NCBI GenBank assembly: GCA_964560765.1
Contig: CAZLMG010000001.1
Span: 5,612 to 69,611, forward strand
Length of the DNA stretch: 64,000 bases
DNA from: an uncultured Oligoflexales bacterium
GTDB taxonomy: Bacteria; Bdellovibrionota_B; Oligoflexia; Oligoflexales; CAZLMG01
Direction of reading: 5' to 3'
The stretch's first letter is position 1; every line of letters starts with the position of its first letter. This document shows, piece after piece, positions 15,315-60,835 of the stretch. Under the pieces are notes generated by a model. It did no database searches and had not been told where the DNA came from. It saw only the letters and a list, made by a program, of their open reading frames with translations. Made by a program: the position numbers and the translations under genes.

Positions 15315-16928
15315 TCAGCGAGGGCGCTGATTTTCGTAGATCAAGGCGATCTCCTCTTCGGAGAGTGCGCGCTCCCAAACGCTTAACTCATCGATGTCGC
15401 CCTTGAAGGTCTCACCAGCCAAAGTAAAGTCCGGAGTCGAACCGAACCTTAGGGAGTAGATGCTCTCAGTTGCCCCTGAGTTTGCGGAATTTTGAAGCAC
15501 ACCATCGAGATAGATTCGACGATGACTTCCATTCCACGTGATAGCAATCATATACCAGGTATCAATGTCGAGAAAACCACCAGAGCCAAGAGGCGCCGTA
15601 AGGGCTGATGTCGAGGAATGAAACGTATAGCGAAATTCGTCTCCGTAAACAAAAATCACCTCAAGAGCGGCAATCGAAGGATCTCCGAATCTAGCGCCGC
15701 CAAAAAATACCCAGTTTGGCTGCGACGAGTTTGGTCGAAACCAGCCAGTGATTGCGCCCTGATTCGTCGAGTAGTTTGGTACGTTTGTCGAACTGATATA
15801 CTCGAGAGCGCCGGCTCCAAGAAAGGCTCCGCCAATGAGTCCAGAGCTCGTCGCTAAATTGCCCGCATTTGGCTTGCTAATCTGAAAAATGTTCGCTGTT
15901 GCAGCGGCGTCCTCCAAGACGTCACCATTGGCCATACTTGCATCGTTCAAATGCAGCAGATGCGTCACGCCCGTCATGTCGATCCATGGATTGGCGGCAC
16001 CCGGATCGGGAAACTCGCGCGGTAACCCAGCCAACGCCGCCGCGTCAAATGCCATGGTGGTGATTCCTGGCGAGAACGGATGGCCTTCCTGCATGGCACA
16101 CAGGCGAAAGCCATACGACAGTTCTGGATCAAGTCCGGTAACAACGGCACTGGTGTCGGCACCGATCTTGTCGCTGGGCTGCACGTACCAAGTCGCGCAA
16201 TCGGGGGGAATTCCCCCTGGCCGGTAAGCTAACTGATAAGAGACACCCGGCGTCGCACTGGCGGTCCAGGTCGCCGTCGCGTCGATACCGTCGGCGCTGC
16301 GAACGACGTTCAACTGTCCAGCATCTCCCGGCGCCGGAGCGCGAACAAAGCCCGGGGGTCCCGACTCTGCATCCGTCAAGCAAACAACCGCGAAATTGCT
16401 GGCACCCACTTTGGCACTGATGGTGAATGTAACAAAGTCGCCGGCATCGGCTTGCGATAGATCGGCGCTATCGACATAGACTTTGTCCGAACCAAGGCCC
16501 GCAACCAAGTCGGGAAGCTCCAGAATCATCGCCACTGCCGCACACGCGTCGACGTCCGCTTTCTCCGCATAAACCCGCAAACGACTGCCACCCTTCGGCT
16601 GGACATCGTCGCCATTCGCCAAGGTCATGGACGTCGCTGCCGCTTGATTCAGCGCATTGTCAATCACCCAAGCGGTTTCTGGCTTGGCATAGCGAATGGC
16701 AATCGTTCCCGACGCCGCATCAAACACACCGGTCGGTACAAAGATATTGGCGCGCCCATCCGGCGTCTCGGCAAGGAACCCAGGAATATCCTCGTCCGAG
16801 TGGGTCGGGCGTTTCTTGGACGTAGGCGAGGAGCCGCTTTCGGCGCTTTGCGCTCCCGGCTTTGTACAGCCAAAAAGTATCGCGAAGCTCGCGACCAGAG
16901 CACCCATTTTTCTGCGAAAGCAGGCCAT
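15315..16928 (-). CDS. lipoprotein with FN3-like and C-terminal LamG/concanavalin-like domain
   Basis: ILFGC lipobox. The Laminin_G_3-type ending is FKGDIDELSVWERALSEEEIALIY. A mid-protein FN3-like segment reads ATWTASATPGVSYQLAYR...VTGLDPELSYGFRL. IPGFL motif at 16773-16787. Confidence 0.65.
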   Translation of the reverse strand: MACFRRKMGALVASFAILFGCTKPGAQSAESGSSPTSKKRPTHSDEDIPGFLAETPDGRANIFVPTGVFDAASGTIAIRYAKPETAWVIDNALNQAAATSMTLANGDDVQPKGGSRLRVYAEKADVDACAAVAMILELPDLVAGLGSDKVYVDSADLSQADAGDFVTFTISAKVGASNFAVVCLTDAESGPPGFVRAPAPGDAGQLNVVRSADGIDATATWTASATPGVSYQLAYRPGGIPPDCATWYVQPSDKIGADTSAVVTGLDPELSYGFRLCAMQEGHPFSPGITTMAFDAAALAGLPREFPDPGAANPWIDMTGVTHLLHLNDASMANGDVLEDAAATANIFQISKPNAGNLATSSGLIGGAFLGAGALEYISSTNVPNYSTNQGAITGWFRPNSSQPNWVFFGGARFGDPSIAALEVIFVYGDEFRYTFHSSTSALTAPLGSGGFLDIDTWYMIAITWNGSHRRIYLDGVLQNSANSGATESIYSLRFGSTPDFTLAGETFKGDIDELSVWERALSEEEIALIYENQRPR

Positions 16929-17024
16929 TTCACTCCCCCTTTTCCCTCCTATCGGAGATTCGGCCCAGAAGTTAAAGAATTCGGCTTACTGGGCCGAAAA
17001 GACTGGGAAAGGGGGCATGGCATC

Positions 17025-18923
17025 GTGCAAGCATTCAGTCGCAGTTTTCGGCTTACCCTGTTGACGCTGATCTTGGCGTTCACTGTGAGTCACTGCACGC
17101 GCGCCAAGAGCAACGGCGAGGCACGACCCGGTTCAACTGGCAGCGAGACCCTACCAGGCTACTTGCGCGATCGACAGCCCATCACTGTAGCTGCTGGTGG
17201 TGTATTGACGGTCAAAGGCGCCACCGCACGCTTTGACGCGGGCAGCTTCGGGGCAGACAAAGTTGGTGACCTACGGGTCCTCAGTCAGCCTTCTATCTCT
17301 CTTGAGCAAGCGTATGTCGTTGGTTCGCCTTTGCGCCTTCAAGTTGAAAATGCGGACGGCGGTCTGGCTCCGGCCGCGGAGCTGCAGCGCCCTTGGCAAT
17401 TGACGATGACTGCAAGTGGCATCACCAATCGAGAAAAACTCTTTATCTTGGTCATTGAAAATCCTGGTGCCACCGATGAGTCCATCTCCTTGGTGCGGAA
17501 CACATCATTCTCAGTTACCGGCGCTGGTGGCGAGATCACCATCGCTTGGCAAACCCGTCGCATCAATGTCGATATCATCTTGTTCGAAGGCGAGCCGCCA
17601 GCGAACGTTACCGAAGGCGTCAGTATCACGCTCATTTCTCCGGCGCGAGGATCGTCAGCGGGTGGCACTGAGTTGACGATTCAAGGTACGGCATTGACAG
17701 CAGAGCTTTCGATTACCATCGATGGAGCCGCATGCATCGGTGCCGTTGTGCATACCAGTAGTCGCATGACCTGCACGACACCAGCGCATGCACCTGGCCC
17801 CGTCATTATCGTCATTTCACAAGTCGGTGCGATACTTGCCAGCTCGAACTACTCCTACGTTGCCAGCGGGTCATCTTTCCTTCTGAACTCCACGGGCGCA
17901 CCGCAAGGGCGATACTACCATCGGGCCGTGTGGACAGGTTCGAAGATGATCGTGCACGGAGGCAGCTGCTCAGCCGACGAAGTGTGTACTAGCATGGGCA
18001 TTTACGATCCAGCTATGGACACATGGCAAGAGGGTGTTGCGGCTACACCGGCAAGTATCGGAGCCCGCGACCATGCTGCCGTCTGGACGGGCAGCCAGCT
18101 ATTAGTGTGGGGAGGTGCGACTGTTGAAAACGAATGGACCAATGCCGGAGCCCTATACGACCCGGCAACCAACAGCTGGACCACCATCTCAAACGTCGAT
18201 GCCCCCGTTTGGCGACAAGGATACACTTCGGTCTGGACAGGAACACATCTCGTCATCTGGGGTGGTCGAGATGCATTTACGTCGCCCACTTCCTACAACA
18301 CCGGAGCCATGTACTCACCCGCTACCGATACTTGGACGGCCATGACTCTGAATGGCGCGCCAGGCGGCGTTTATGGCCCTGTCGCCGCCTGGACAGGAGA
18401 TCGAGTGCTCATTGGTGGCGGACTTGGTGGCGGCAACGCAGGACAGACGACCGTCAAGTTTTTCGATCCGACCACGAACAGTTGGACGCCAGGGGCGAAT
18501 TTTCCAAGCCCCATCTCCCAGGCACCCGCCGGCATGATTGACGGGAAGATATGGGTATGGAGCCGCGGCGGTACTGGTGACAATGACAGCATCGTGACTT
18601 GGAATCCAGTTTCACCTGCCAGCTGGAGCACCTTTGAAGCCCCCGGCCAGCGTAACGCCTTCGCCCATGCTGTCGTGGGCAACAAACTCTTCGTGGCTGG
18701 TGGAATCAACTCGTCGCACAATGAGGCGTACGGAACACTATTGCAATTTAACTCTATAGGTGGAGGTTGGTCGAATCTCGGTACTCCACAAGCATCGCTG
18801 GACCCCCTCACATCAGCGGCTGCGATCAGTACCGGTGGCGAATTTATCGTCTGGGGCGGCACCGAGGACATTTACGATTCAGACGCGGGCATCATTCAAA
18901 GCGGATATATTTACATTCCCTAA
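17025..18923 (+). CDS. exported IPT/TIG plus Kelch-repeat protein
   Basis: The GTG 17025 start gives a signal peptide (M)QAFSRSFRLTLLTLILAFTVSHC. IPT/TIG segment: GGTELTIQGTAL...ITIDGAAC...RMTCTTPAHAPGPVIIV. Repeated [HA]AAVWTGSxxxVWGG Kelch-like blades follow. LPGYL motif at 17151-17165. The upstream part of track ORF 16644.. overlaps the divergent gene and is rejected. Confidence 0.7.
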   Translation: MQAFSRSFRLTLLTLILAFTVSHCTRAKSNGEARPGSTGSETLPGYLRDRQPITVAAGGVLTVKGATARFDAGSFGADKVGDLRVLSQPSISLEQAYVVGSPLRLQVENADGGLAPAAELQRPWQLTMTASGITNREKLFILVIENPGATDESISLVRNTSFSVTGAGGEITIAWQTRRINVDIILFEGEPPANVTEGVSITLISPARGSSAGGTELTIQGTALTAELSITIDGAACIGAVVHTSSRMTCTTPAHAPGPVIIVISQVGAILASSNYSYVASGSSFLLNSTGAPQGRYYHRAVWTGSKMIVHGGSCSADEVCTSMGIYDPAMDTWQEGVAATPASIGARDHAAVWTGSQLLVWGGATVENEWTNAGALYDPATNSWTTISNVDAPVWRQGYTSVWTGTHLVIWGGRDAFTSPTSYNTGAMYSPATDTWTAMTLNGAPGGVYGPVAAWTGDRVLIGGGLGGGNAGQTTVKFFDPTTNSWTPGANFPSPISQAPAGMIDGKIWVWSRGGTGDNDSIVTWNPVSPASWSTFEAPGQRNAFAHAVVGNKLFVAGGINSSHNEAYGTLLQFNSIGGGWSNLGTPQASLDPLTSAAAISTGGEFIVWGGTEDIYDSDAGIIQSGYIYIP

Positions 18924-19142: not shown

Positions 19143-19862
19143 CTAGAAGGCTCCGCCGCCACCGACAATGAACGTCTGCTCGCCCGCCAGAATCGTTTCC
19201 GCCCTTAGGGTGAAACCATTGAGATCTATCAGGGCACCTAAGCGTAGGCTGAATTTTTCGTCGCGGTCAAAATCCGCATCAGCATTCACAGCCAGAGTGC
19301 CACTTGTAACCGTCGCTTCGAATTCACCCTTGCTACTGATGATGATGTCCGCGCCTGCATAGGGACGAAACTTGTTATTCACCGCGTGGGCAAAGATGGC
19401 GCCGATATGGACGTCGGTGATGCTGACTTCCGCTTCGATGCGGGCGATGCCGATTTTTTCTTCCAAATCTTCGGACCAGATATTCATCATCAAATAAGGT
19501 ACGACCTGTGACGCCGAGCCCACCTCGAAGCGACCTTGCACGCCACCGCCTACCAGCAAGCCACTGCCTTCGTAATCATACGGCCCTGAATCGATCTCTG
19601 AATCGACGATCATGCCCAATTGCGCAAAGACCGCCAGACTGGAGCCAAATCCGTGGCTCACCGCGCCACCAAAGATCGTTCGCTCTGAATCCGGATCACT
19701 TCTGCCGCTGTCATACTCAATCTCTGATATGGCAAGTCCAAGGGAGTAGCGCAACGCTCCCGTACTGAAGTGATTGCCCGCCGGCATGGCAAACGACAGC
19801 GACCGCGCTTCGATAGAAACGATACAACTTACGGCCAGTGCGAAGAGATGGAAAAGGTGCAT
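19143..19862 (-). CDS. putative outer-membrane beta-barrel protein
   Basis: Signal peptide MHLFHLFALAVSCIVSIEA. The sequence shows an alternating amphipathic pattern, is Gly-rich and ends in a terminal aromatic residue (...GGGGAF*). The ATG 19862 start is preferred over 19916. Confidence 0.5.
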   Translation of the reverse strand: MHLFHLFALAVSCIVSIEARSLSFAMPAGNHFSTGALRYSLGLAISEIEYDSGRSDPDSERTIFGGAVSHGFGSSLAVFAQLGMIVDSEIDSGPYDYEGSGLLVGGGVQGRFEVGSASQVVPYLMMNIWSEDLEEKIGIARIEAEVSITDVHIGAIFAHAVNNKFRPYAGADIIISSKGEFEATVTSGTLAVNADADFDRDEKFSLRLGALIDLNGFTLRAETILAGEQTFIVGGGGAF

Positions 19863-20297
19863 GAAACTCAATCCTCGAGTCGTTTGGGATGACTTCAGTG
19901 ATGCCATAGCGGCCACTGGCAGTCATCCTGTAATGCTCCAAAAACGCCACGCGTACTGTGATATTCAACCCGGTTGAAAGAACTTCATGGAGCCGTCACC
20001 GCACAAACACCCACAACGTAAGCTACTGGACTTAAAAGGTTATCTGCGAATCCTACAGTAGGACATGCAATCCCAGCATCGCAAGGCAGCCATAACACGC
20101 TGTAATTGCATTGATAATAAGGGCCCCCATCTCCGGACATGAAAACCTTTGGCAGGGGCCGACCGCCAACACTTCGATACAACTAATTGTATTTATTAAT
20201 TTATCTTCGTCTGAGCAGATTGGTAACCATCCTGCATTTTGCTTAAGACATCAGCACCCAATTCATGCGGTGAACCTGCGCCAGAGTGGAGCCACTT

Positions 20298-21985: not shown

Positions 21986-22900
21986 ATGCGTTTCGTTGCC
22001 ATCATCGCTAGTCTTGCGCTGGCTGCTGCCTGCTCGCCAGAACAGGGAGCCAATTCAGCGGCCAACTCGTCGCCCCAATCGGCACGCCCCTCGGATGGTT
22101 CGGAAGGAGTCCCGGGGTACCTATCTGACGTCGTCACGACGCTGTTGAGTTACGATCCAGATACATTGCTTCTTGAGCTAGCAGACAGCACGGGCTCGAT
22201 CCGCTCTTGGTCCGGGACACCTCCTTCCACACGAATTTTGGTCGTGCAGTTGACCTGGGATTCCTTTATCGCCGCCTTGAGTGTGACTCCAGGAAGCCGC
22301 TCCACCCTTGACGGTATGCTCATCTTTCCCATTGAGCCGACATCGAAATGGTCGTTTGAGGCGAAGCTGCGGTTGCCAGCCCACGATCCCATTGTCCTTG
22401 TCCCCGTGCAGCGGCGCGACGATGGAACCTATCAAACCGACATCTTTGCCGATCAGGCCTATCAGGAGTTTCGAGTGCTGCCGTTTGCGCCGCCCCGGCG
22501 CGTCAGCGGAAATCTCGGCGACGCGCCGATGGTGTCTTGGGACATCGACGGAGATGGCGCCGTCACGGCGGCCCGGGACGGACAGATTGTCCTGCGATAC
22601 TTGAGCGGACAAACTGGGTCGATGTTGACATCAGGATTAGATTTGTTCGGTGCCTTGCGCAACAACGCCGAGTCCCTCGAGACGTATTTGAATGCCAGCG
22701 ACGCGCAGTACATGCTGGATGTCGATGCTGATGGCGAGCTTTCGGCTGAACGCGATGGATACCTCTTGCTTCGGCACCTCGCCGGATTCTCTGACGACGA
22801 ACTCATGCGCTTCATGACCAATGCGGCTGCTACGCGAGCGGATGCCCTTAGCGTTGTGCAGCATATACGACGGTTTCTACCAACGCCGATTGCGGAGTGA
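21986..22900 (+). CDS. lipoprotein with two dockerin/EF-hand-like repeats
   Basis: ALAAAC lipobox. VPGYL motif at 22109-22123. DIDGDGAVTAARDGQIVLRYLSG and DVDADGELSAERDGYLLLRHLAG resemble type I dockerin Ca-binding repeats. Confidence 0.55.
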   Translation: MRFVAIIASLALAAACSPEQGANSAANSSPQSARPSDGSEGVPGYLSDVVTTLLSYDPDTLLLELADSTGSIRSWSGTPPSTRILVVQLTWDSFIAALSVTPGSRSTLDGMLIFPIEPTSKWSFEAKLRLPAHDPIVLVPVQRRDDGTYQTDIFADQAYQEFRVLPFAPPRRVSGNLGDAPMVSWDIDGDGAVTAARDGQIVLRYLSGQTGSMLTSGLDLFGALRNNAESLETYLNASDAQYMLDVDADGELSAERDGYLLLRHLAGFSDDELMRFMTNAAATRADALSVVQHIRRFLPTPIAE

Positions 22901-24123
22901 GTGCGGATATGGCGACGCCGGAAAAATCGCAGAAATCTTCCTGGACTGTGGCGCTCGTAAACCAGACGAAGTCCGACGTCAGGGATGAAATTGACAAGGC
23001 CGTTGTTGGCAATTCAGATCTCGGAGTTCGTCTATCCCACATTTTGGCACAGGTGGCGCGCCTCCAAGACGAGGTCAATTCGCCGAATTTGCTGCGCTGC
23101 TTAGTTTATGTCATGTCGGCACTGGTGCATCACGAGCGATTCGGTGGCCTGAGCATGGCGGATGTGGGGAGACTCTTCGAAATCGGCAAACGTATTTTGC
23201 AATGGCGAGGTGTTAAGGCCGGAAAATCTAACCTAGCCTTCCTGCATGGTGAGCTGCATCTGGTCATGAGCCAAATCTTTCGCCGGGAAGGTGAACCACT
23301 TCGCTCGGCCTGGGAGCAGCAGCTTTCGGAGCGAATGTCGGGGGCAACACCAGTCGGCGGGTCGCCAGCACATCAAGCGATGGCCTTGGGCCTGCGCGCC
23401 ATTCGCCTTGGTCATGCCGCCTTGGCTATGCATTCCTTTCAAGATGCACTGAAGGCAGGAATGGCCCCCCCGCAGCGGTGCCGTCTGCAAGTCGAGATGG
23501 TGCGAACATTGCGCCTATGCGGCATGCGAGGTCGAGCACAAGCGGAATGTAATGTCTTCCTGCAATCTGATGGGCTCTCTGCCAACGAAAGGGCGGAATT
23601 GCAATGGGAAGAGAACTGTCTAGCTTTGCATGGACCCGATGCCGACTTAACTCCCCTCCTCGCCTCCGTGAAAAAGGGGCAAGTTCACCATGCTGAGTCC
23701 TACATTCTCGAGGCCTTTATCTGGACTCGCGCTGTATCCAGCACCGAGTGGCTGAAGCGCTATCCGACGGTAAAAAGTCTCGCTCGCAATCCGAACCTGG
23801 ACTTTAGAGGCGCCGGCTTTCTGTATCGCGCAGCGCGCCTGTTAGAGACCAGTTACGACGTCGATATTCCGCTGTTGACTCGTTGCGAAAGGTTAGGTCG
23901 CGTTGTGTTCGAGCGCGACCTGTTGCTTGGCGTCGACAAGGAGCTCCTCGTTCTCGCGGCCACAGCTCGCTGGTTGGTCCGCAATCACTTCTTTCCATTA
24001 GCTTCGCTGGTGATAGCTACTTATCAGGGGCTTTCCCGAACCTTGAGTTCGGGCTCCGCGAGCGACACCCTGGGATTAGTCTGCGATCTCGTTAACAAAG
24101 AGTGGTTTCAATCAGCTGCGTAG
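22897..24123 (+). CDS. hypothetical protein (no signal peptide, helical-looking)
   Basis: Long ORF whose GTG start overlaps the upstream stop (GTGA). An alternative ATG is at 22909. No recognisable motif. Confidence 0.45.
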   Translation: MSADMATPEKSQKSSWTVALVNQTKSDVRDEIDKAVVGNSDLGVRLSHILAQVARLQDEVNSPNLLRCLVYVMSALVHHERFGGLSMADVGRLFEIGKRILQWRGVKAGKSNLAFLHGELHLVMSQIFRREGEPLRSAWEQQLSERMSGATPVGGSPAHQAMALGLRAIRLGHAALAMHSFQDALKAGMAPPQRCRLQVEMVRTLRLCGMRGRAQAECNVFLQSDGLSANERAELQWEENCLALHGPDADLTPLLASVKKGQVHHAESYILEAFIWTRAVSSTEWLKRYPTVKSLARNPNLDFRGAGFLYRAARLLETSYDVDIPLLTRCERLGRVVFERDLLLGVDKELLVLAATARWLVRNHFFPLASLVIATYQGLSRTLSSGSASDTLGLVCDLVNKEWFQSAA

Positions 24124-24160: not shown

Positions 24161-25999
24161 CTATTCTGCGAATGTCACAAGAGTGGGTGTCGCAAGTTCG
24201 TTGAGCCCACTGCCATCACCTACTTGGCCAAGATTATTAGCACCCCAACAATACACTTCGCCTTCATCAGACAGCGCACACGTATGCCTGGTCCCCGCAG
24301 AGACTCCGACAAATCGCACCCCGTCTGCAGCGACGAGTTGCGGTCGAGAATAGGTGGATGCTGAGGCACCGGTACCAACCTGACTAAAGTCGTTATCACC
24401 CCAGCAATATATCTTGCCAGAGCGAGCCAGTGCGCAGCTGTGATCGCCACCAATCGCCAGACCCAAAAACGTCTCTCCAGGATGCGCCGAAAAATCCACA
24501 GGGACAGCCTGCTCTTCGGTTCCGCTTGTGGCGCCATTGCCAAGTTTACCCTTCTCGGCGGCGCCCCAACAGTACACTCTACCCAATCGATCGATACCGC
24601 AAGCATGTGACTTCGATGACATGCTGAACCAATTGACGTCGATGGCAATAAAATGGATGGACTCACCGCCCTCGTCCCGGATGAGTTTTGCGCTATAATC
24701 GAATTGACCTAGTCCAAGTGACACATTGTAACCAGGTCCCCAGCAATAGGCTTTCCCATCTCTGGTCAAGGCACATGTGTCTGCAGCGCCAGCTGATAAA
24801 GTCAGAGAGGCCACTTCTGCTAATTTTACTTTCGTTGACGGCGCCGACGAGCAGTAAGTTCCGAAGCCAGACGTATCGCACAACTCCCGTTGGGCATCCT
24901 TATCACCCAGGCGCTCGTCACTGTCTAAACCCCAGCAAAATATCTCGCCACCGGCAGTAACCCCACAGGTGTGGGCGCCGCCGACAGCGAAAGCATAGAA
25001 CATACCATTGCCACTGACACTACTGACATTGACCGGCTCAGGACTTTCAACCGGAGCCTGACTGCGATTACCGACGCCAACTTCACCATTAGAATTCTTT
25101 CCCCAGCACTGAATCTCGGTACTTCTAGAGCCGAATAAGGCACAGCTATTACCATAGCCACCCGCCACGTTGCCCGTGCCAGCTTCCAGAGAGATCAATC
25201 GGGGGGTTGTCGCATAATCTCCTGCAACCTGGCTGGTAAGCTGCTTCGTTGAGTTGTGACCCCAGCCATAAACCTCACTTTCGCCAATCGAGCTTTCACG
25301 AACAATAAATGTTAAATCGGCACCAGCATTCAGCTGCAAGTGTCGTACAGGCTCCAAGATAACATCGCCAACAACCGCTGAATACAGAGCCACGGCCGCA
25401 TTGAAAAATGGGAAGTCGCTTTTGAAGATGATTTTGTAAGTATTGCCTTGGACGGGCTCAATCTTCAGCAAAGGTCCAGCCAATAGCAATGTTTTGGTGA
25501 CGGTGGCTCCTTCATTCGCATCCTGCTCCTCCGTGGCGAGAACTTGCAGAAGCACTGCTAGATCGTCGACGGAGCTACCAGATGGTAGGTCTATCTCGAT
25601 CGCCACTTCCATGGGACTTGCTAGCACCAAGTTCACTCCGCTTTCAGCAATGCTAACGTGAAACTGATTGCCAATGATGCCGCCAGCCGCAACCTGGGAA
25701 AACACGACGTGCCCTTCTTTGACCGACACGGTCGTGAACTCGGTGATAAACCCGGCGGGAAATTTGATGCTGATCCGTTCTGCAGCCAAGGTGTCATTGT
25801 CGATGTCAGAGCCGGTAGCCACCTGAGTGATCTTGCCGCCGACACTTTCGCTGGAGTTTGGGGCTTTGCGAACACAACCAGCAAAACTAAACATCGCGAT
25901 CATGACCAGCGCCACATGTATGACCACGGCCACGCCAAGACTGTGCGTGCCATCGATGCGTTCCGACTGCCGGCATTTTGGCATTTCCATAAGTTCCAC
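24161..25999 (-). CDS. RCC1-repeat (beta-propeller) exported protein
   Basis: Repeated xYCWGxNxxGQ[VL]G blades are present: VYCWGANNLGQVGDG, IYCWGDNDFSQVGTG, VYCWGAAEKGKLGNG, IQCWGKNSNGEVGVG. An N-terminal TM/lipobox (FSFAGC) is present. Confidence 0.75.
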   Translation of the reverse strand: MELMEMPKCRQSERIDGTHSLGVAVVIHVALVMIAMFSFAGCVRKAPNSSESVGGKITQVATGSDIDNDTLAAERISIKFPAGFITEFTTVSVKEGHVVFSQVAAGGIIGNQFHVSIAESGVNLVLASPMEVAIEIDLPSGSSVDDLAVLLQVLATEEQDANEGATVTKTLLLAGPLLKIEPVQGNTYKIIFKSDFPFFNAAVALYSAVVGDVILEPVRHLQLNAGADLTFIVRESSIGESEVYGWGHNSTKQLTSQVAGDYATTPRLISLEAGTGNVAGGYGNSCALFGSRSTEIQCWGKNSNGEVGVGNRSQAPVESPEPVNVSSVSGNGMFYAFAVGGAHTCGVTAGGEIFCWGLDSDERLGDKDAQRELCDTSGFGTYCSSAPSTKVKLAEVASLTLSAGAADTCALTRDGKAYCWGPGYNVSLGLGQFDYSAKLIRDEGGESIHFIAIDVNWFSMSSKSHACGIDRLGRVYCWGAAEKGKLGNGATSGTEEQAVPVDFSAHPGETFLGLAIGGDHSCALARSGKIYCWGDNDFSQVGTGASASTYSRPQLVAADGVRFVGVSAGTRHTCALSDEGEVYCWGANNLGQVGDGSGLNELATPTLVTFAE

Positions 26000-29058: not shown

Positions 29059-29655
29059 TTAGCTTCTGGCGGCGAACGCCAGCGATGCAATCAGGGTTGA
29101 AATCGCACCGACATAATCGGTACGACACTGCTTGGCAAATTCGCTTGCCATTTCTTCCATGCCAGCATCAGCAGCATCAACAAACGGCAAGGCGCGCATA
29201 ATCATCTCTTGCGCATCGGCGGTGGTATCACACTGACAGAGTGTCAACTCGCCGTAGGCGATCTCTTCCATACAGCGTTGCGCCGCGTTGTGTCCGAGGA
29301 TGGCCAAAGCCATCAGGTACGAGGTACTGGGGCTATCCGCGAAAATCTCACCAAAGCGCAAACCATCGGTCTGCCCGAAGTTCTCGCCATAGACATCAAA
29401 GATGCTGAGCTCTTTACCCTCATCGTCGACTTCGCCCGACATGTCTTTGGATGGGCCAAGGGTCATGTAAAGCGATTGCGCTAACAAGGACGTACCCTTG
29501 AGCTGGATGTTCTCCGTAACTTTCTCTTCCTCAGTCAGGTCGGCATCGTTCTCTTTGCCACCACCGGAGCTGCTTTTGTCATCTTTGCCGCAACTCCATC
29601 CCAGCATGCTTATGACGACGAGCCAAAGGCCCAGCTGTTTGCTTGCAGTGATCAT
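29059..29655 (-). CDS. lipoprotein, function unknown
   Basis: MITASKQLGLWLVVISMLGWSC gives a signal peptide with lipobox, followed by an acidic/Lys-rich linker. Confidence 0.5.
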   Translation of the reverse strand: MITASKQLGLWLVVISMLGWSCGKDDKSSSGGGKENDADLTEEEKVTENIQLKGTSLLAQSLYMTLGPSKDMSGEVDDEGKELSIFDVYGENFGQTDGLRFGEIFADSPSTSYLMALAILGHNAAQRCMEEIAYGELTLCQCDTTADAQEMIMRALPFVDAADAGMEEMASEFAKQCRTDYVGAISTLIASLAFAARS

Positions 29656-29707
29656 AATTTCCCCCTCTAGTTACTGTCATGTACAGGACGCTGAATGGAA
29701 ATTTTGG

Positions 29708-30979: not shown

Positions 30980-31190
30980 GGTATTCCTCTAAGCGGCATC
31001 CCAAATCTGGGCCAGGTTCACAGCGCCCGAATCGCGGGCAGAAAGCCCTGTCGACCGCCGCTTGAGGAAGTTTAATGATTTCTGATTTTGACTTGTAGTT
31101 TTAGGGCGTTCCCATAAAGCCTAAAGATTGGGAATGGCCAGGCGCGGAAAGGTTTTCGCACCCCGGCAATTTGATTTGGCAAGAAACTGA

Positions 31191-31973
31191 TTAGCGGCAG
31201 AGTTTTAGCTTCTTGAGCTGCGGATAGAAGCCTTCGTGAGCCTTCAGACCTTGATGCCAGTCCTTGACCGTCATCGGTGTCAAATGGTTTGCGTCCCAAG
31301 GTAGCTCATGCTTTCGGCTTTGGTCATCGAATACCAAGATTCGACCACCGCCGATGCTAGTCACGCCGTCGACAACAACACGACGACGCTCGATACCGCG
31401 CGTCTGATACTCCTGCTTGGCCCGCATCGAATCGACCGAGCAGTTACGGTCAGCGACGATCATCGCCAAGGCTTCATACAAGGAAACAGCGTCGGCATTA
31501 TCGGCGGTCCTTCGTGGCGCGTCCTCCATCAGCTGCGCCAACTCCTGGCGATCGATCGTGCTCGATACCTCGCCGGCGCCAGCAGCGCCTGGAAAGATCT
31601 TTGTTTCGTAACCGAAATAGATGATGCTGTGGAGTCCGGAGGGAGGCGCACCCAATTGCACTTCCACCTCGCCATTGCTGTAGCAAGGGCAGCGGTCGCC
31701 TGTCGGCGTCAGGGAAAGCCGATGATCGGACGTAATTTCGCCAGTGGCGTCCTTTACCACACTCGAACTGAAGAGAATTTCCTTGTTGATATCGACGATC
31801 TCAATCACATAGCTCAAACGCACGGTCTCGCGTTTGTGGACGAATTCCAATTCGCCCTGCAGCGTCTTATTCGACGGCTTGATGCCGCGCTCTTCCGATA
31901 GGGCCGAATTCGTCGTGCGACAGCCCACCAACGCCAGCCCGGAACACAGTATCCCTAGAATGACTACTTTCAT
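31191..31973 (-). CDS. lipoprotein, function unknown
   Basis: The internal ATG 31973 gives MKVVILGILCSGLALVGC, a signal peptide with lipobox. The upstream 67 codons of the track ORF have no signal-peptide logic. Confidence 0.5.
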   Translation of the reverse strand: MKVVILGILCSGLALVGCRTTNSALSEERGIKPSNKTLQGELEFVHKRETVRLSYVIEIVDINKEILFSSSVVKDATGEITSDHRLSLTPTGDRCPCYSNGEVEVQLGAPPSGLHSIIYFGYETKIFPGAAGAGEVSSTIDRQELAQLMEDAPRRTADNADAVSLYEALAMIVADRNCSVDSMRAKQEYQTRGIERRRVVVDGVTSIGGGRILVFDDQSRKHELPWDANHLTPMTVKDWHQGLKAHEGFYPQLKKLKLCR

Positions 31974-49867: not shown

Positions 49868-49929
49868 CACTTGCTCCTTTTGTGATTAGGCGCTCGCCCG
49901 AAGTGTAGCTTCATGAATCACTGATATGT
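49855..49929 (-). repeat. copy B of the duplicated intercistronic element
   Basis: See copy A. On the minus strand, both copies place the pairable segments (G)TGATT and AATCA(C) before AAAAGGAG. Confidence 0.55.
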
Positions 49930-52889: not shown

Positions 52890-54560
52890 TCAATAGAGAA
52901 TGATGGGGCTCATGGATGCGGTACTACCCGGTTCGCCGATTTGCTTGACCATCAGCTTGCTGGCGCCAGGAATGTAAATTCCGTGAAATGGGGGATTAGA
53001 GTAGTTCCCAGAAGATCCATAGGTCACTACGTGCAGATTTCCGCCCGGATCGCTCCTGATACGCAGCGCATTGGCACCTTGATCGAGGTAGTCGAACTCT
53101 GCACCAATGCCAGCCACAGTAACTTCGGTCTGCTGTACCACATTGGAGGACGAAACCGAGATATATAGGAGCTTGATTTCCTCGTCCTCAGGAATACTGT
53201 AGTGAAAGAGCATGTGGGTCGTGCCGGCAGTATCGACGTCCATGGCTGAGTAACCACTCGACCGCAGGCCACCTTCGTTCGGACCATGCACCATCCTAAG
53301 CCAATCCCGGTTTCCGCTGGGATGCAGGCGACCAAAGCTTAAACTGACATCCGCCGCCTGATTGGTCGTACAACGAATCGTAAAATACGCGATCCCTGTA
53401 GTTGCAACATGTGTCGTCGTCAACGGCGCTGAACAAGCACCCCCACCGCCATCGTCGGAAATAACACCCGTGCTTGACACGGTATTGCCACCCGCCGCCA
53501 TGTTGATGAGCATGACATTTTTCACCTGCGGGCCCTCGCGGTCCACGACCGCAAAATAGCCGCTCTCATTCATCGAGGCAGACTCCAACATCCGCGTGTG
53601 CTCGGCTACATTGAAAGTAGCGAAAGTCCCCATGGAGCCGGTTCGCTTGCGTGCCGCAACAAACGGTGTAGTCCAGTGCAATCCTTCGACAGCCAGAATC
53701 TCTCCCCCAGAGAGATTCGAAAAACCGACAATGGTCGTCTCGTCGGTATCAAACGCGCGCTGATAGGATGTGTTTTCCGTCCACGCTTGTGGTTGGCCTT
53801 CAAAAATTCGACCGCCCGGCAGGCCGAGAATAAAACTGTCCGTATCCGTAATCTGAGACACGGCAAGGTAGCGGCCCACTTGATGGCTTTCTGTACCGAC
53901 GCGCGTTGTCTCCCAGGCGCCACCCGCATTGGTTGCAAATCCGATGAAACTAAAACTTCCGGTCGAGGTATTCGAGTCCAAGCCAGAAGCCAGCAGCAAA
54001 GCCGCACGTCCAAAATAAGGCTTGTATCCAGCATCGTCCGGTAATGCCGTCGCCACAATCAGCGCCGTACAAGTGAGGCGCGGCTCATCTGCCGGTGGAA
54101 AAATGGTCAGCTTCATGCCATCGCTGCTGAGCTCCATGTTTTCGGACGAAGCCAACGAGAAACGAAAGTTACGATCGGCTGTAGCGGATGAGCCGGAGCG
54201 CTGCTGCAATCCTGCAACAAAATCCGCGCACGGCATCTCACGCGGCGGTCCATACAGCGCCACCACGTAGTCGCCCTCCACCGCACGCGTCAAGGGCACG
54301 ACATAAGACCCATCGGTTTTAGCGCTGACAAATGGGGTGAGATTGATATCTGATAACCACTGATCACGGCTCTCGTAGCCAAAACTTCTCTCGTCAATCA
54401 GGTATCCTGGAATGGTATCTGGCTCGTCGAGGCCCCGCGGCTTCGAACTCGCCGTCGACCCATCCGATCCCGAGGACTGGAGCTTGGCGCAAGAAGCAGC
54501 CAGCGCCGCAATAGCGAGCGTTAGCAAGACCCCCCGAACATTCATTTGCGTTACCATCAT
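52890..54560 (-). CDS. lipoprotein, function unknown
   Basis: LAASC lipobox. IPGYL motif at 54399-54413. Confidence 0.5.
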   Translation of the reverse strand: MMVTQMNVRGVLLTLAIAALAASCAKLQSSGSDGSTASSKPRGLDEPDTIPGYLIDERSFGYESRDQWLSDINLTPFVSAKTDGSYVVPLTRAVEGDYVVALYGPPREMPCADFVAGLQQRSGSSATADRNFRFSLASSENMELSSDGMKLTIFPPADEPRLTCTALIVATALPDDAGYKPYFGRAALLLASGLDSNTSTGSFSFIGFATNAGGAWETTRVGTESHQVGRYLAVSQITDTDSFILGLPGGRIFEGQPQAWTENTSYQRAFDTDETTIVGFSNLSGGEILAVEGLHWTTPFVAARKRTGSMGTFATFNVAEHTRMLESASMNESGYFAVVDREGPQVKNVMLINMAAGGNTVSSTGVISDDGGGGACSAPLTTTHVATTGIAYFTIRCTTNQAADVSLSFGRLHPSGNRDWLRMVHGPNEGGLRSSGYSAMDVDTAGTTHMLFHYSIPEDEEIKLLYISVSSSNVVQQTEVTVAGIGAEFDYLDQGANALRIRSDPGGNLHVVTYGSSGNYSNPPFHGIYIPGASKLMVKQIGEPGSTASMSPIILY

Positions 54561-54768: not shown

Positions 54769-55410
54769 TTGCATCGTGCTCCTGGCGTCTTGTTTTTCGC
54801 GCTGGCAACATTTGCCTGCGAAAATATTGGCTTGTTACCAGCCGGTTCGAAGCCAGCGCCACATGCAGAGTTGCAGGCTGCACCTCCAGCTGGGGTGGCA
54901 CAGCCGGCGGAAGAAAATGGCGAGGAATCCTATACCGTCCAAGTGCCCCTAGACCCTAGTGCTCCCGTGATACCTCCGGCAACCAATCAGCAGCATTCGC
55001 ATCCCCTTTCCAGCATCGATATACCTAACGACCCAATCGCCCTATGCACAAATGCCATTTTGAATCCAATCGGCTATCCCCTACCCCAGGAGTCAATGCT
55101 GCCGAACCAAGAGGCCATTGCCAGTTGGCGCAACCACTGCGCCAACGAAATCTGTACGGCAGAAAACAACTACTGTTCACCGGAAATGCTCCCAGGCGGG
55201 CAGCAGTATAAGATCCACTGCAGTCGAACCGTCGTTGAGCGTTGCTTCCGCTTGTGGAATGAGTGCGAAACCATCTTTCGCGGTTGCATGGCGCAATGCG
55301 CAACCCTATTGGCGAGTGGCTTGGCCGATCGCTACCCTAGCTGCGAGCAGAACTGCTACCGGCAGCGGGGCGAGTGCAGTGAATCCCAACTTGGGTATCA
55401 ACCGCTTTAA
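54769..55410 (+). CDS. Cys-rich lipoprotein, function unknown
   Basis: TTG 54769 lies 5-6 nt after GGGAGGG. (M)HRAPGVLFFALATFAC gives a lipobox. The C-terminal half has about 12 Cys. Confidence 0.45.
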   Translation: MHRAPGVLFFALATFACENIGLLPAGSKPAPHAELQAAPPAGVAQPAEENGEESYTVQVPLDPSAPVIPPATNQQHSHPLSSIDIPNDPIALCTNAILNPIGYPLPQESMLPNQEAIASWRNHCANEICTAENNYCSPEMLPGGQQYKIHCSRTVVERCFRLWNECETIFRGCMAQCATLLASGLADRYPSCEQNCYRQRGECSESQLGYQPL

Positions 55411-55706
55411 CCGACCCTTTGGCTGCAGTTCACGGTGATCACCGCAAATTTTCTATGGCTCGACATTAGACTCTGATTTTTCGCACCTAAAAGCACCCTA
55501 ACCATCGGAAATATTTACCTGCAGCGATACCATGCTGTGGAGCGCGCCCATGCCTTAGCTGCCAACCTCGGCGGGGGCTGGGATATTCAGCCGTGAATTC
55601 AGCCGGCTCGCGATGGCCGCTCCCAGGTAAGACCCTTGCAATGGACCACTCTGCGACATGAAGTCGGCGAAGTTAACATCATGAAAATATTTTCGAGGAG
55701 TTCGAC

Positions 55707-56369
55707 ATGCGAGCGGTATTGTGGATGGGATTGATTGCATCTTTGGGCTGTAAGACCACCACGGAAGAGTCGGTCGTCCATGACGGGATCACGCCACATT
55801 GGGGGGAGCTAAACTGCCGCGTGACTCGCTCGGGCCAATTACTAGGAAAGATCAAGCCGGAAATCATCAGTGGCAGTGAACTCGCAAGCGGCAACACAGT
55901 GCTGGTTGCTGGCAGAAAGTTTTCCGTCGTGCTGGAAACCGGTAGCGAGTTCGATACTCAATCCTCGCTGACGATGACTTTGGATGACCAAGTTCTGGAA
56001 GTTTTTGATCCCGGACAGGCAATCTACAAATTGTCAAAGGACGACCGGCAACTGGAGCTACAGTGTTACTACAAGTCCGGACGTTCCTTGCCCGCCCAAA
56101 TACGCTCGGCAAAAATGTCATGCAAAGCCGATCAAGGCGGACAGAAGGTAACGCCCATCAAACACCAGACCATGGCAGGAAATCAAGAGCCTGAACCGTC
56201 GGTATATTTGTATGAAAACCACACAATCGCGGTCAACTTCTTTGAAGGTAATCAGCAGCGCCTCACTGTGGAGCTCGACGGTGCCATGGCGGAAGTGGTT
56301 TCGCCAAAAAATTCCCTGTATAAATTATCTACTGGTGATGGAACGCAGGTGCAGTGCGTTGCCGAGTAG
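55707..56369 (+). CDS. lipoprotein, function unknown
   Basis: The ATG lies after GAGGAG. MRAVLWMGLIASLGC gives a lipobox. Confidence 0.5.
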   Translation: MRAVLWMGLIASLGCKTTTEESVVHDGITPHWGELNCRVTRSGQLLGKIKPEIISGSELASGNTVLVAGRKFSVVLETGSEFDTQSSLTMTLDDQVLEVFDPGQAIYKLSKDDRQLELQCYYKSGRSLPAQIRSAKMSCKADQGGQKVTPIKHQTMAGNQEPEPSVYLYENHTIAVNFFEGNQQRLTVELDGAMAEVVSPKNSLYKLSTGDGTQVQCVAE

Positions 56370-56421
56370 CGCAGCTAGGTGAATCGCATGGCTGCTATTG
56401 CCATGCCTCCATACACTCTGC

Positions 56422-56445
56422 CGCGGGCCGCAAAAGTAGCCCGCG
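56422..56445. terminator. weak hairpin between convergent genes
   Basis: CGCGGGC (56422-56428) pairs with GCCCGCG (56439-56445) across a 10-nt loop. There is no clear T-tract. Confidence 0.3.
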
Positions 56446-56459
56446 CCTACTCATTTCTG

Positions 56460-58199
56460 CTAATCCATTCCCGGCAGATCCGTTCCATCAATTAGCAGCT
56501 GCGGTGCAGCATGATAGGCTGTGGAAACACGGCCGATGTACTGATGAGATTCTAAACAAGGACACATGCGCCCAGTCAGCGGTTCCTTTTTATTCCACGC
56601 ATAGACTGCGCCATTTTCTTCCAGAAAATACCAATTATTGCCGAGTGCGTGGGTTTTGCCCTGGAACCACCATTCATTCTTTCCACCCCAATTGAAGTTG
56701 CTGGGAGCACCGGTCAGCTGCAAATTCCTAGCGACGATGCTAGCCAGATCCAGGCCGCCCATAATGGTGGCGCGGCGGTGGTAATATTCCGCATCCAAAC
56801 GCGCCACCAACTTGCTATGGACGAACGGCTTAGCAAAGTTGGCCTTGGTGTCACGCACATCCCACTCGTAGATAAATCCGTTCGGTAAGAGAAAAAACCA
56901 TACTTTCGGCGTCGTGGCGGTGGCTTCACGGGCAAGCCAATATTCCTGGCGGCCACCCCAATTGAACGATGAAAACTCGCCGCTGGGTTTGTGCGAACTA
57001 GCAAATGCGCCGACCGAAGATGCGGGGTACGTGCCCCCATCAATCAGAGGTTGCGTGTCCGCATAGTACGAAGCAGGGACCCAGCCAATCATTTTGCTAT
57101 AAAGGGCGCCCTTGGCAAAGGTCGTTCGCGTGTCGCGCCGGTCCCAATGATAAATCTGGCCGTTTGGCAGAATAAAGACCTGCCCCGACTTTTGACTCGT
57201 AATCCACTTCTCTTGCCGCCCGCCCCAGTTATACGCGGTGGCCGAACCAAAGAGTTCGTGAGTCAAATCAATCTTGCCCGGGTTGATATCTACACCGGCC
57301 TGCAAGCGAATCCATTCGAGCTCATTGATGACCTTGGTGGCTTGACCAACAACGGCCTCATCACAGAGTTTGCCATTGGAGGATTTGCTAACACCATACA
57401 GGACGAAGCCCTCAACAGTGCGGCGAAAGACTGGCCCGCCGCTATCGCCACTACAGATCATCTGCATGTTGTCGTACCTGGCGTGCAGTGCCATGGCATC
57501 CTTCGTATTTGACGGTATATTGAAAAGGGGAGGACCCAAGACGTTGACTCCCACGCGCAATTGCCCGGATCGATCCGCCGTCCGATTCGCTTCATCGACG
57601 CCATATCCCGCGACCTCAAACTCAGCGCCTGGCTGAAAAGTATAGTCGATACCCAATTCTATGGGAGCAATCCCTTCTACGGGACGGGTTAACGTGACGA
57701 CGGCCAGATCACGTATACTCAGTGCGACCGAGGACTCACTAAAGTCAAAAGCGGGATGCGCCTCAAAACGGCTCAACTCATAGACATTGGCAGGATCGAA
57801 AGTATAAACGGAATACTTGACACCCTTGTACTCCACGAGCCACTCACCTGTTGGCCGACCAAACGTGACCCGTAGCTCTTTCAGCTTGGCCTCGGTATCC
57901 GGCTTGCAGTGGGCTGCAGTCAGCACGTGACTTCGGTTGATCAGTGACCCTGTGCAATGCTGTTGATAATAATTTGTTCCGCCAGACGTGACCTGCTTGA
58001 AGATTCCAGCCACAAACGGCAACTCGGCATGCTGAATTTCGACGCCGTTACGAAGCTGAACCTGCGTCTCGTCGGTCGAGTTCACTGCCGCTCCCGACCT
58101 TGAAGCGGAACTGGATTCACTCTCGGTCTCCTCGACCTTGCCGCAACCGAATGCAATGTGCATGCATGCTAGATACACCAGGGCTATGGTCTTGCGCAT
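56460..58199 (-). CDS. secreted trypsin-like (S1) serine protease with three C-terminal ~90-aa repeats
   Basis: TAAHC (His) and GDSGGP (Ser) are present, and the Asp is probably in SIRDLAVV. Lipobox IAFGC. The repeats are anchored by [YF]NWGG[RK]xExW at aa 324, 413 and 503. Confidence 0.85.
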   Translation of the reverse strand: MRKTIALVYLACMHIAFGCGKVEETESESSSASRSGAAVNSTDETQVQLRNGVEIQHAELPFVAGIFKQVTSGGTNYYQQHCTGSLINRSHVLTAAHCKPDTEAKLKELRVTFGRPTGEWLVEYKGVKYSVYTFDPANVYELSRFEAHPAFDFSESSVALSIRDLAVVTLTRPVEGIAPIELGIDYTFQPGAEFEVAGYGVDEANRTADRSGQLRVGVNVLGPPLFNIPSNTKDAMALHARYDNMQMICSGDSGGPVFRRTVEGFVLYGVSKSSNGKLCDEAVVGQATKVINELEWIRLQAGVDINPGKIDLTHELFGSATAYNWGGRQEKWITSQKSGQVFILPNGQIYHWDRRDTRTTFAKGALYSKMIGWVPASYYADTQPLIDGGTYPASSVGAFASSHKPSGEFSSFNWGGRQEYWLAREATATTPKVWFFLLPNGFIYEWDVRDTKANFAKPFVHSKLVARLDAEYYHRRATIMGGLDLASIVARNLQLTGAPSNFNWGGKNEWWFQGKTHALGNNWYFLEENGAVYAWNKKEPLTGRMCPCLESHQYIGRVSTAYHAAPQLLIDGTDLPGMD

Positions 58200-59316: not shown

Positions 59317-59325
59317 TACGTCTAG

Positions 59326-59571: not shown

Positions 59572-59590
59572 GTTGCAATACCTCTCTAAA

Positions 59591-60835
59591 CTACTTACAG
59601 GCGCAAACTCGCTGCATATTGACAGCTGATCCCGATAACGTGGTCGGTGTTGTATCCCAAAAGAATTTGCGCATATCATGGCGGTAGAAGCATCCTAGCC
59701 CATGCGATGTCGTAATATTTTCAAGGGTCTCATCTGTTTCCGTCAGCTGACGCATGACGTCCTGACAGCGTTCTCGGTTCTCCGCATAGCCAGGCGTCGT
59801 CGTCACTCCACGGTGCCCAATCAAATCGATCGTCGCCTCGTTAGCGCGCATGGAATGGTCCGCACAAACGTCTTCGCAACTTTGCTGGCTCCACAAGTAA
59901 CCGAGAAAATAGCAACTGCCAGGATCATCCGGGATGGTGACGCTGCTGCTTGGGCAACTCAATTCGCCATCATCGCTGGGACTTAAATTGGATGATGAGT
60001 TTTCCGAGCCATCCGCCGCAGCCAATAGAAAGGCCTCCCCATAAGAGGCGATATCGCCATGCAGCGAACAAACGCGCACCCAGATGTCTTCACCGCTATT
60101 TCGGCGTGAAATTTCGGCGCTCGTCACTCCTGCTGGCAGCAGCTCGCTCAACTCGCCGCCGCCACAGGTCATCGGTGGCTTCTTGCCCACGCCGATGGCG
60201 ATGGCATGCGGCAAATCGGCAACGTTGCTCGCAGTTTCGAAGCTGACCGTGAAGGTCTGTTCATCGGTCCAAGACGCAATAAGTCTGAGGACGCCATCTG
60301 TAGCGTCGATGCGCGTAAGCCCCTCGGGCGCATTCTCATCGAAGATTCGTACGAACCCCACAGTATCAGTTAGCAAGGCTGAAAGCCGTGCAGCAAAGCA
60401 AGAAGCGTCGGCAGTGTTATTCACCACCCACGATGGAATCATCAGCTGTTTGCCATGAAAGATGGCACTGGCCATACCGGCAACTTCGGGATCGAAGGTA
60501 CAAAGCTCCCAAAGCATATCCAGCCAATCGCCCATAGGCAGCTGGCCGTCAGCATCGCGAATATCTAATTGGAGTGCGTTGCTACTCGGAGACTCACTTA
60601 GTACATAGGCCAGGTTCACACTTGGAAATTCCACACCGATGCGGTCGTCGTGATACCCTGCATAATTCATCGAATCCGTAGTCCAAACCAAGTAACCGGG
60701 CAGCGGTCGGTCCTCGCCAACTTGGGTCTTTCCGCGTGCGGCGTAGCCGTCTGACGCAGCTTGTGGCGTTGCACGCGTGCATGCCACAGATACGCAGCTG
60801 GTAAGTAAGGCCAAGATGTTTATGAAACGAAGCAT
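59591..60835 (-). CDS. lipoprotein, function unknown
   Basis: MLRFINILALLTSC gives a lipobox. LPGYL motif at 60689-60703. Confidence 0.5.
   Translation of the reverse strand: MLRFINILALLTSCVSVACTRATPQAASDGYAARGKTQVGEDRPLPGYLVWTTDSMNYAGYHDDRIGVEFPSVNLAYVLSESPSSNALQLDIRDADGQLPMGDWLDMLWELCTFDPEVAGMASAIFHGKQLMIPSWVVNNTADASCFAARLSALLTDTVGFVRIFDENAPEGLTRIDATDGVLRLIASWTDEQTFTVSFETASNVADLPHAIAIGVGKKPPMTCGGGELSELLPAGVTSAEISRRNSGEDIWVRVCSLHGDIASYGEAFLLAAADGSENSSSNLSPSDDGELSCPSSSVTIPDDPGSCYFLGYLWSQQSCEDVCADHSMRANEATIDLIGHRGVTTTPGYAENRERCQDVMRQLTETDETLENITTSHGLGCFYRHDMRKFFWDTTPTTLSGSAVNMQRVCACK

Follow-up and report, generated by a model that had tools for sequence, protein, structure and literature searches.

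A conserved N-terminal module with a PGYL core in otherwise unrelated predicted lipoproteins of an uncultured Oligoflexales bacterium

Introduction

Why do five exported proteins, which look otherwise unrelated, carry the same short peptide at nearly the same place behind their signal peptides? This question is raised by a 64,000-nucleotide stretch of DNA (the window) from an uncultured Oligoflexales bacterium. Five of its genes code for predicted lipoproteins, named here p1 to p5 in genomic order, in which a motif of the form [ILV]-P-G-[YF]-L follows the lipobox Cys. An earlier note on this DNA had drawn attention to this motif. The pentapeptide was described correctly, yet it proved too narrow when taken as the whole signal, since it is only the core part of a longer module, which begins at the Cys and spans about 26-34 residues. 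This N-terminal module is real, statistically secure and uncatalogued, and a function as a sorting, tethering or processing signal is plausible.

Detection of the module

All five sites were found again where the earlier note had placed them, on the same strands, both in the open reading frame (ORF) listing and in a six-frame scan (Table 1). In each protein, the motif lies behind a signal peptide and a lipobox-like Cys, with a Cys-to-Pro spacing of 28, 20, 27, 27 and 27 residues from p1 to p5 and with [ILV]PG[YF]L 19-27 residues past the Cys. The core is encoded differently every time. From p1 to p5, the PG[YF]L codons read CCT GGG TTC CTT, CCA GGC TAC TTG, CCG GGG TAC CTA, CCA GGA TAC CTG and CCC GGT TAC TTG. 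The codons for P, G and L are different at every synonymous position across the copies, and synonymous sites are saturated among them. Since the synonymous codons differ throughout, the motif is not a DNA repeat, and it could be confirmed that its conservation is at the protein level.

The six-frame scan of the window returned PG[YF]L eight times. Besides the five module sites, one occurrence (34383-34394, ADPGYLLL) lies inside a cytoplasmic ArsR-methyltransferase and the remaining two in ORFs too short for genes. A set of 80 loci from unrelated bacteria, totalling 1.4 Mb, was used as control. The frequency of PG[YF]L per residue is 2.4e-4 in the window vs 2.0e-5 in this control DNA. When only PG[YF]L at 10-50 residues past the Cys is considered, none of the 414 lipobox-like N-termini of the control has it, as against five of 35 crude candidates in the window. 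The Poisson probability of at least five such sites is about 1.4e-10.

Composition and spacing of the module

Fifteen module-bearing sequences were compared, with the Cys and the Pro both used as anchors. They belong to six families, namely the p1, p2, p3, p4 and p5 types and that of P0013, a p3-like protein counted separately. The module opens with a post-lipobox box, C-T-[KR]-x-x-S-[NG]-x-A-[ED]. Counted from the Cys, the residue directly after it (+1) is T in five of the six families and +2 is K or R in four (p1, p2, p4 and p5, with P in p3 and Q in P0013), while S stands at +5 and A-[ED] near +8 to +9. The likeness extends across family borders, as illustrated by CTRAGSNTAE in P0017, of the p1 family, and CTRASSNTAE in P0010, of the p4 family. 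A short spacer of variable length, rich in Ser, Gly, Pro and Ala, comes after this box. It is followed by a basic box, [KR]-[KR]-[PG], at -10 to -8 from the Pro in a register that is fixed across families, and by a net-acidic stretch of about six residues at -7 to -2. In the core itself, position -1 is I, L or V. The residues P, G and L are invariant in all six families, G and L being separated by Y (or F), and D or E is found at +5 from the Pro in five of six, the full end pattern being [ILV]-P-G-[YF]-L-x-[DE]. The acidic residues and the conserved core occupy +18 to +33 after the Cys. In 13 of the 15 sequences, Cys and Pro are 26-30 residues apart, within a full range of 20-32.

As read from sequence, all 15 proteins have the layout of a lipoprotein, with a basic n-region, a hydrophobic h-region and a lipobox with an invariant Cys, and they are presumably lipidated. 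The h-regions of the signal peptides are not conserved between them. The residue at -1 of the lipobox is A, G or S in most of the 15 and H or N in four, which are p2 (TVSH/C, at 17085-17096), P0005 (LTTH/C), P0010 (AVLN/C) and P0015 (ISAN/C). Such His or Asn residues suggest a relaxed lipobox in this lineage.

The tether between Cys and motif is 24-30 residues long (18 in p2) and is made up for 88-100% of disorder-promoting residues. In the AlphaFold2 (AF2) model of p4, the confidence score pLDDT (predicted local distance difference test) is below 50 for residues 1-59 and rises from the motif onward. The first 18-30 residues probably form a disordered tether, and ordered sequence would begin at the motif.

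A boundary between disorder and order is a typical maturation point, and the conserved dibasic box stands 8-10 residues ahead of the motif. Both features would suit a processing or shedding site, where a protease would cut at the basic box or between the G and the [YF] of PG[YF]L, freeing or activating the cargo and leaving the module as a lipidated pro-peptide. A gene for a trypsin-family lipoprotein does lie between p4 and p5 (56460-58199). However, four of the six families (p1, p2, p3 and P0013) have [KR]-P at the end of this box, and Pro at P1' is poorly cut by trypsin- and kexin-like enzymes. In the neighbouring protease, the sequence is ...QMICSGDSGGP, so that the equivalent of chymotrypsin residue 189 appears to be Met, not Asp, and basic specificity would not be expected of it. 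Moreover, cleavage sites seldom need about 17 conserved residues or a fixed spacing from a Cys. Processing at the module looks improbable on this balance.

In its C-terminal half, the same trypsin-family lipoprotein contains three repeats, each about 100 residues long and recognisable by [FY]NWGG[RK]xE[KYW]W and LPNG/EENG-x-[IV]Y-x-W.

A discrete class of proteins and its homologues

A hidden Markov model (HMM) built from the 15 modules gives 42-63 bits to the five window proteins, 6.8 to the next window ORF and 10 to the best of 9,176 control ORFs. The module proteins form a discrete class. About 16 other lipobox-type N-termini in the window are without the module, including those of CAP, trypsin-family and RCC1-propeller lipoproteins and of many orphans, and the module is not a general lipoprotein requirement. 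The RCC1-propeller lipoprotein (24161-25999) was considered as a degenerate sixth member and rejected. Its post-Cys sequence CVRKAPNSSES resembles the first box and KFPAGFI follows later, while the 6.8 bits cover the signal peptide and first box only, and neither the basic box nor PGYL is present.

Table 1. Genes, motif cores and modules of the five window proteins (strand in brackets; scores from the module HMM)
Feature	Position	Core	Description	Module sequence	Score (bits)
p1 gene	15315-16928 (-)	IPGFL, 16773-16787 (-)	537-aa predicted lipoprotein; module, then ~150-aa orphan N-domain, fn3, LamG (Laminin_G_3)		
p1 module	16767-16868 (-)			CTKPGAQSAESGSSPTSKKRPTHSDEDIPGFLAE	61.1
p2 gene	17025-18923 (+)	LPGYL, 17151-17165 (+)	632-aa predicted lipoprotein, GTG start at 17025, lipobox VSH/C; module, then ~150-aa orphan N-domain, TIG/IPT, Kelch beta-propeller		
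p2 module	17094-17171 (+)		shortest spacer, Cys-to-Pro 20 residues	CTRAKSNGEARPGSTGSETLPGYLRD	42.4
p3 gene	21986-22900 (+)	VPGYL, 22109-22123 (+)	304-aa predicted lipoprotein; module, then ~140-aa N-region, two dockerin/EF-hand-like Asp-rich loops		
p3 module	22031-22129 (+)			CSPEQGANSAANSSPQSARPSDGSEGVPGYLSD	53.4
p4 gene	52890-54560 (-)	IPGYL, 54399-54413 (-)	556-aa predicted lipoprotein; module, ~150-aa N-domain (two Cys ~53 residues apart), C-terminal beta-propeller-like domain		
p4 module	54393-54491 (-)			CAKLQSSGSDGSTASSKPRGLDEPDTIPGYLID	62.6
p5 gene	59591-60835 (-)	LPGYL, 60689-60703 (-)	414-aa predicted orphan Cys-rich lipoprotein beginning with the module		
p5 module	60683-60781 (-)			CTRATPQAASDGYAARGKTQVGEDRPLPGYLVW	60.9

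Homologues were found for three of the types, as P0002-P0005, P0010 and P0011 in the p4 family, P0014, P0015 and P0017 in the p1 family and P0013 as the p3-like protein. They come from six other NCBI contigs (129,558; 225,948; 174,864; 42,814; 41,125 and 6,190 bp) and one SRA-derived contig; the sequence of a Logan contig encoding a homologue (L081, 3.5 kb) could be obtained. At an overall identity of 28%, homologues still contain the module. P0007, from an NCBI-derived collection, is identical to p2 over 632 residues, in agreement with the GTG start of this gene. The only match of p5 in the N-terminal module profile search is itself, as P0009.

An exhaustive profile search over 1.84 billion representatives returned 16 matches at E<=1e-3. 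Two of them are unrelated repeat proteins, and the others are the training proteins, P0013 and additional p1- and p4-family members. A leave-one-family-out calculation indicates that an unseen family would score 20-37 bits, below the cut-off of this search, which is therefore not informative on the number of further families, and rarity cannot be deduced from it. Two Joint Genome Institute (JGI) metagenome scans, with the p4-family and p1-family alignments, gave pattern matches near chance level and no relatives. Over the limited set of families and assemblies at hand, the module appears to be found only in this lineage.

Two other candidates were rejected as unrelated, each with an internal match and no signal peptide. 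P0016 is a low-complexity repeat. P0012, of 1,710 residues, matches through TTPGYLFDK and SLPGFLEDK; its repeats of about 100 residues each contain SNDTTPG[YF]LFDK and DSLPG[FY]LEDK, so that [DE]-x-x-P-G-[YF]-L-x-[DE] recurs many times internally. This repeat protein is probably fibre-like and not related to the lipoprotein module.

Cargo domains and the region behind the motif

What follows the module differs from one protein to the next. Pfam recognises LamG and fn3 in p1 and TIG and Kelch in p2, whereas p3 only matches Dockerin_1 at E=0.018, below the family cut-off, and p4 and p5 have no match. In a Foldseek search with the AF2 model of p4, the C-terminal two-thirds of the protein correspond to beta-propellers, namely BNR-type glycoside hydrolases and PLL lectins. 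When the five proteins are compared by blastp, only the N-terminal 50-70 residues or so align, at the best E-values. The claim that the downstream domains are unrelated is supported both by this comparison and by the differing Pfam content. Swaps of the C-terminal part are also seen within families. In the p1 family, P0015 has FG-GAP repeats where p1 has LamG, and the module is kept; p3 and P0013 have the module and about 130 N-terminal residues in common, followed by a dockerin-like end in one and a Cys-rich end in the other. The module is independent of the cargo domain. Beta-propellers, LamG, fn3, TIG and dockerin-like repeats, as lectin- or adhesin-like heads, fit surface display.

The architecture of these proteins brings in a structural explanation. 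All families might share a very divergent N-terminal domain of about 145 residues, on which C-terminal heads would be shuffled and of which [ILV]PGYLx[DE] would be the first strand or cap, kept for folding. In four families, about 140-150 residues indeed separate the motif from the first domain that can be recognised, with fn3 starting from ~216 in p1, TIG at ~200 in p2, the dockerin-like part at ~186 in p3 and the propeller at ~200 in p4. The module and the N-region move together with different C-termini, and in the N-region of both the p1 and the p4 family, two Cys are separated by about 48-54 residues. Conservation runs unbroken from the motif into each family's own sequence, and the pLDDT of p4 climbs from the same point.

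Profile comparisons argue in the other direction. For the 160 residues past the motif, hhalign gave a probability of <=2% for all ten family pairs, with shallow profiles of 1-7 sequences. Five hhalign comparisons, covering four family pairs, were also set against column-shuffled controls, and the scores were not above those of the shuffles. The p1-p4 family score is like that of its shuffled controls (z=0.6). A borderline case, in favour of a base domain, is that of p3/P0013 vs the p4 family (z=2.8, 1/45 shuffles reaching the real score). No common domain could be established between families over the ~150 residues past the motif. Furthermore, p2 and p3 have zero Cys in their N-regions, and the AF2 models are too poor for a comparison of folds, with a pLDDT of 50-60 for the N-domain of p4 and a mean pLDDT of 39.8 for p1. 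A base domain also leaves unexplained the conserved boxes upstream of the motif, which lie in the disordered tether. Such conservation inside a disordered tether is expected of a linear motif, and not of the first strand of a fold. We regard a common base domain as unlikely, though as the main rival of the reading favoured below.

The orphan regions in question span residues ~55-205 in p1, ~50-198 in p2, ~48-185 in p3 and ~55-200 in p4, and may correspond to a common base domain beyond sequence detection.

Selection on the module

The p4 family, with seven sequences and a mean column identity of 0.30, allows the module to be compared with the remainder of the protein. Over the full length of the protein, the eight best-conserved windows of 9 residues each include part of the motif, with values of 0.76-0.88, and the top one (0.88) falls on the module. 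When the most conserved stretches were chosen automatically, [ED][EAT]PD[TA][IL]PGY was picked in this family along with LID[EYR][RS][SF]FG[YF], and D[EG][EDG]IPG[FY]L[AV] in the p1 family along with ET[PSK][DN]G[RL]A[NS][MIV][FL]. As far as can be judged from these alignments, selection is stronger on the module than on its cargo.

These data bear on a neutral explanation, in which signal peptide and tether would be a leader cassette spread by recombination or duplication and persisting without function beyond export. The five copies do lie within 45 kb, p1 and p2 are divergent neighbours, and the N-terminus as a whole is alike between families, as in the P0017 and P0010 sequences quoted above. 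The copies have no DNA similarity, however, and their synonymous sites are saturated, while the h-regions, which belong to the same putative cassette, are not conserved. In addition, the module is the best-conserved part in paralogues and orthologues down to 28% identity, where neutral persistence would have erased it, and purifying selection specific to the module is already seen in the p4 family. A cassette of this kind is very improbable.

Comparison with known families and signals

The earlier note had not recognised the motif as a described signal, which agrees with the searches made here. Pfam, NCBIfam and the PDB gave no consistent match, even at E<=10 on N-terminal segments. Full-length proteins had no N-terminal match in Pfam-A or NCBIfam, models such as LptM_cons and those of the LPAM type included. 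Nine isolated N-terminal segments at E<=10 had scattered matches only, each in one member, and none to LptM_cons (PF13627). The PDB profile search returned signal-peptide-like noise only, and a literature search on PGYL plus lipoprotein gave nothing relevant. One described domain over the first ~100 residues of all five proteins, which would have spoken against a new signal, was looked for and not found.

The closest analogy in logic is with the lipoprotein export signal (LES) of Bacteroidota, C-X-K-(D/E)2-X or SDDDD, which is located at +2 to +6, strictly position-dependent and experimentally tested (PMC5080379). Like the module, it is a short signal of the mature N-terminus on a subset of lipoproteins, common to unrelated cargo and absent from periplasm-facing ones, and made of basic or polar and acidic residues. 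In contrast, the module reads T-[KR]-[A/K/S]-x-S at +2 to +6 (Cys = +1), with no acidic run; the LES pattern of K, S or Q followed by at least two D or E at these positions is not found in it, and its P-G-[YF]-L core is 20-32 residues from the Cys. The motif of the T2SS/GspN route (T2SS, type II secretion system), GGG or ND(N/D) at P2'-P4', is necessary yet insufficient, a sign that the protein carries additional information (PMC12802150). It likewise follows the lipobox and singles out certain lipoproteins for a dedicated route to the surface. It differs in that it adjoins the Cys and has composition (Gly/Ser or Asn/Asp) as its defining feature, with no PGYL-like core and no fixed distal element, and none of the 15 module sequences has these patterns at +2 to +4. 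The module looks akin in logic to the LES or the T2SS/GspN motif, yet it departs from both in position and composition, and a function of the same kind can only be proposed for it.

Disordered linkers are also relevant. In E. coli, those of RcsF, Pal and NlpD are needed for Lol sorting; their length matters, and artificial disordered peptides about as long can stand in for their sequence (doi 10.1101/2021.01.05.425367). More than 22 residues between the Cys and the folded domain is the threshold for a long disordered N-terminal linker (El Rayes et al., doi 10.1101/2021.01.05.425367). By composition and AF2, the module proteins have linkers of this kind, the tether of p2 being the short one. 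The module tether is likewise disordered, and differs from the E. coli linkers by its conserved boxes and by the invariant motif at its end, common to several families.

In LptM (YifL), the N-terminal consensus is CGxKGPLY. This conserved lipoprotein N-terminus (Pfam PF13627, LptM_cons) is seated inside the LptD barrel (PMC12065857). It resembles the module as a short conserved peptide near a lipid anchor, which contacts an outer-membrane machine and in which Gly, Pro, Leu and Tyr are present. It differs by directly following the Cys, by its residue order and by its restriction to one family of small proteins. The anchor peptide of TbpB-type surface lipoproteins offers another parallel, as an N-terminal linker needed for the complex with an outer-membrane partner, a TonB-dependent receptor (PMC7857515). 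That peptide is family-specific, is not common to unrelated cargo and has no sequence similarity to the module.

As for the rules of Lol avoidance, which leads to retention in the inner membrane, an Asp at +2 has this effect in E. coli. Narita and Tokuda are said to have described, in 2007, a Lys+3/Ser+4 retention signal in P. aeruginosa. With Cys as +1, the module has Thr at +2 in five of the six families, K or R at +3 in the p1, p2, p4 and p5 families (P in p3, Q in P0013) and Ser at +4 in only two sequences, these rules being from E. coli and P. aeruginosa and possibly not those of the host.

Three other types of signal were rejected. A prepilin-type cleavage site (G/F...E) would have a hydrophobic helix after it, which is missing here. 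The Bacteroidota-type O-glycosylation sequon D-[ST]-[AILVMT] occurs in the p4 family only. A sortase- or exosortase-type signal would be at the wrong protein end and in the wrong context.

A possible recognition or docking element

The reading that we tentatively favour, at somewhat less than an even chance, is that the module serves in recognition or docking, as a linear element in which a disordered tether ends. This short element and the membrane-embedded lipid would be kept a defined distance apart, about 27 residues, and one partner common to all cargo families would read the element. One candidate for this partner is a machine of the envelope by which these lipoproteins would be sorted or flipped to the cell surface; the other is a docking site for them, in the form of a scaffold or an outer-membrane protein. 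The variable lectin- or adhesin-like heads would then be displayed. Such a partner would have to exist, and the module proteins would be expected at the surface. We lean to this reading because the class is discrete and independent of its cargo, the spacing is ruler-like, conserved boxes lie in a disordered tether, selection appears to be stronger on the module than on the cargo, the cargo is lectin- or adhesin-like and other lipoproteins are without the module. Post-Cys peptides that are functional elsewhere, such as the LES (PMC5080379), the T2SS/GspN motif (PMC12802150), the linkers in Lol sorting (doi 10.1101/2021.01.05.425367) and LptM (PMC12065857), provide a precedent for it.

Several points weigh against this proposal. 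Experimentally defined lipoprotein sorting signals are all at <=~8 residues from the Cys, as compared with ~27 here (PMC5080379, PMC12802150). The partner and the localisation are both things that we infer. The unbroken conservation from the motif into family-specific sequence, seen in each family, and the AF2 confidence that starts rising at the motif of p4 also fit a structural role. The module is carried, in the sequences collected so far, by six families in a handful of assemblies. Lastly, the grouping of the five window copies within 45 kb could reflect a local functional set or common ancestry.

A bolder form of the recognition or docking element can be formulated as a new lipoprotein address tag, in which a motif about 27 residues from the acylated Cys, on a patterned disordered tether, would be read by a dedicated surface-export or docking machine in a poorly sampled lineage. 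We hold this form to be rather doubtful.

Genomic neighbourhood

Lipobox-type N-termini number about 20 in the 64 kb and are spread over 14509-61000 (for example 14509-15144, 24161-25999, 29059-33422, 36033-41040, 47476-49870 and 54769-58199). Most are without a Pfam match, and a large share of this region appears to be given to orphan lipoproteins. One of the genes in these intervals (37978-41040) codes for a 1,020-residue protein of unusual architecture, which combines an N-terminus of lipobox type with a Fic/DOC domain near residues 816-862. Another unusual architecture is found at 61409-63907, where a GNAT acetyltransferase is fused with two AAA+ modules in a protein of 832 residues.

The p1 and p2 genes diverge from an intergenic region of 96 bp (16929-17024), which is almost palindromic, with mirrored purine-rich sites resembling ribosome-binding sites at 16935-16945 and 17005-17015. 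It contains a perfect 10-nt inverted repeat, TTCGGCCCAG at 16959-16968 and CTGGGCCGAA at 16989-16998, which may be a shared operator. A promoter motif common to the five upstream regions was searched for, and nothing convincing was found. At its stop codon, the p3 gene overlaps with the GTG start codon for a 408-residue orphan (22897-24123), cytoplasmic-looking and without Pfam match, which suggests that the two genes are co-transcribed and translationally coupled.

Between p2 and p3, a gene at 19143-19916 codes for a protein of 257 residues that matches nothing in Pfam. It has a signal peptide and ends in ...GGGGAF, as is typical of outer-membrane beta-barrels. To judge by these features, this putative barrel is a candidate partner of the module.

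Significance

To our knowledge, the way in which surface lipoproteins are selected is largely unknown in diderms outside Proteobacteria, Bacteroidota and spirochaetes. The few lipoprotein signals that have been defined all adjoin the lipidated Cys; the module sits at a fixed distance from it instead. It provides a testable candidate signal, which can be transplanted, mutated or shifted, a bait for its reader, and an HMM that would separate one class of lipoproteins from the others in these genomes. Should the module be no more than the initial part of a divergent base domain, it would still reveal a new lipoprotein architecture in this lineage, that of a stalk with variable heads. If the address tag is true, lipoprotein sorting information need not adjoin the lipid anchor.

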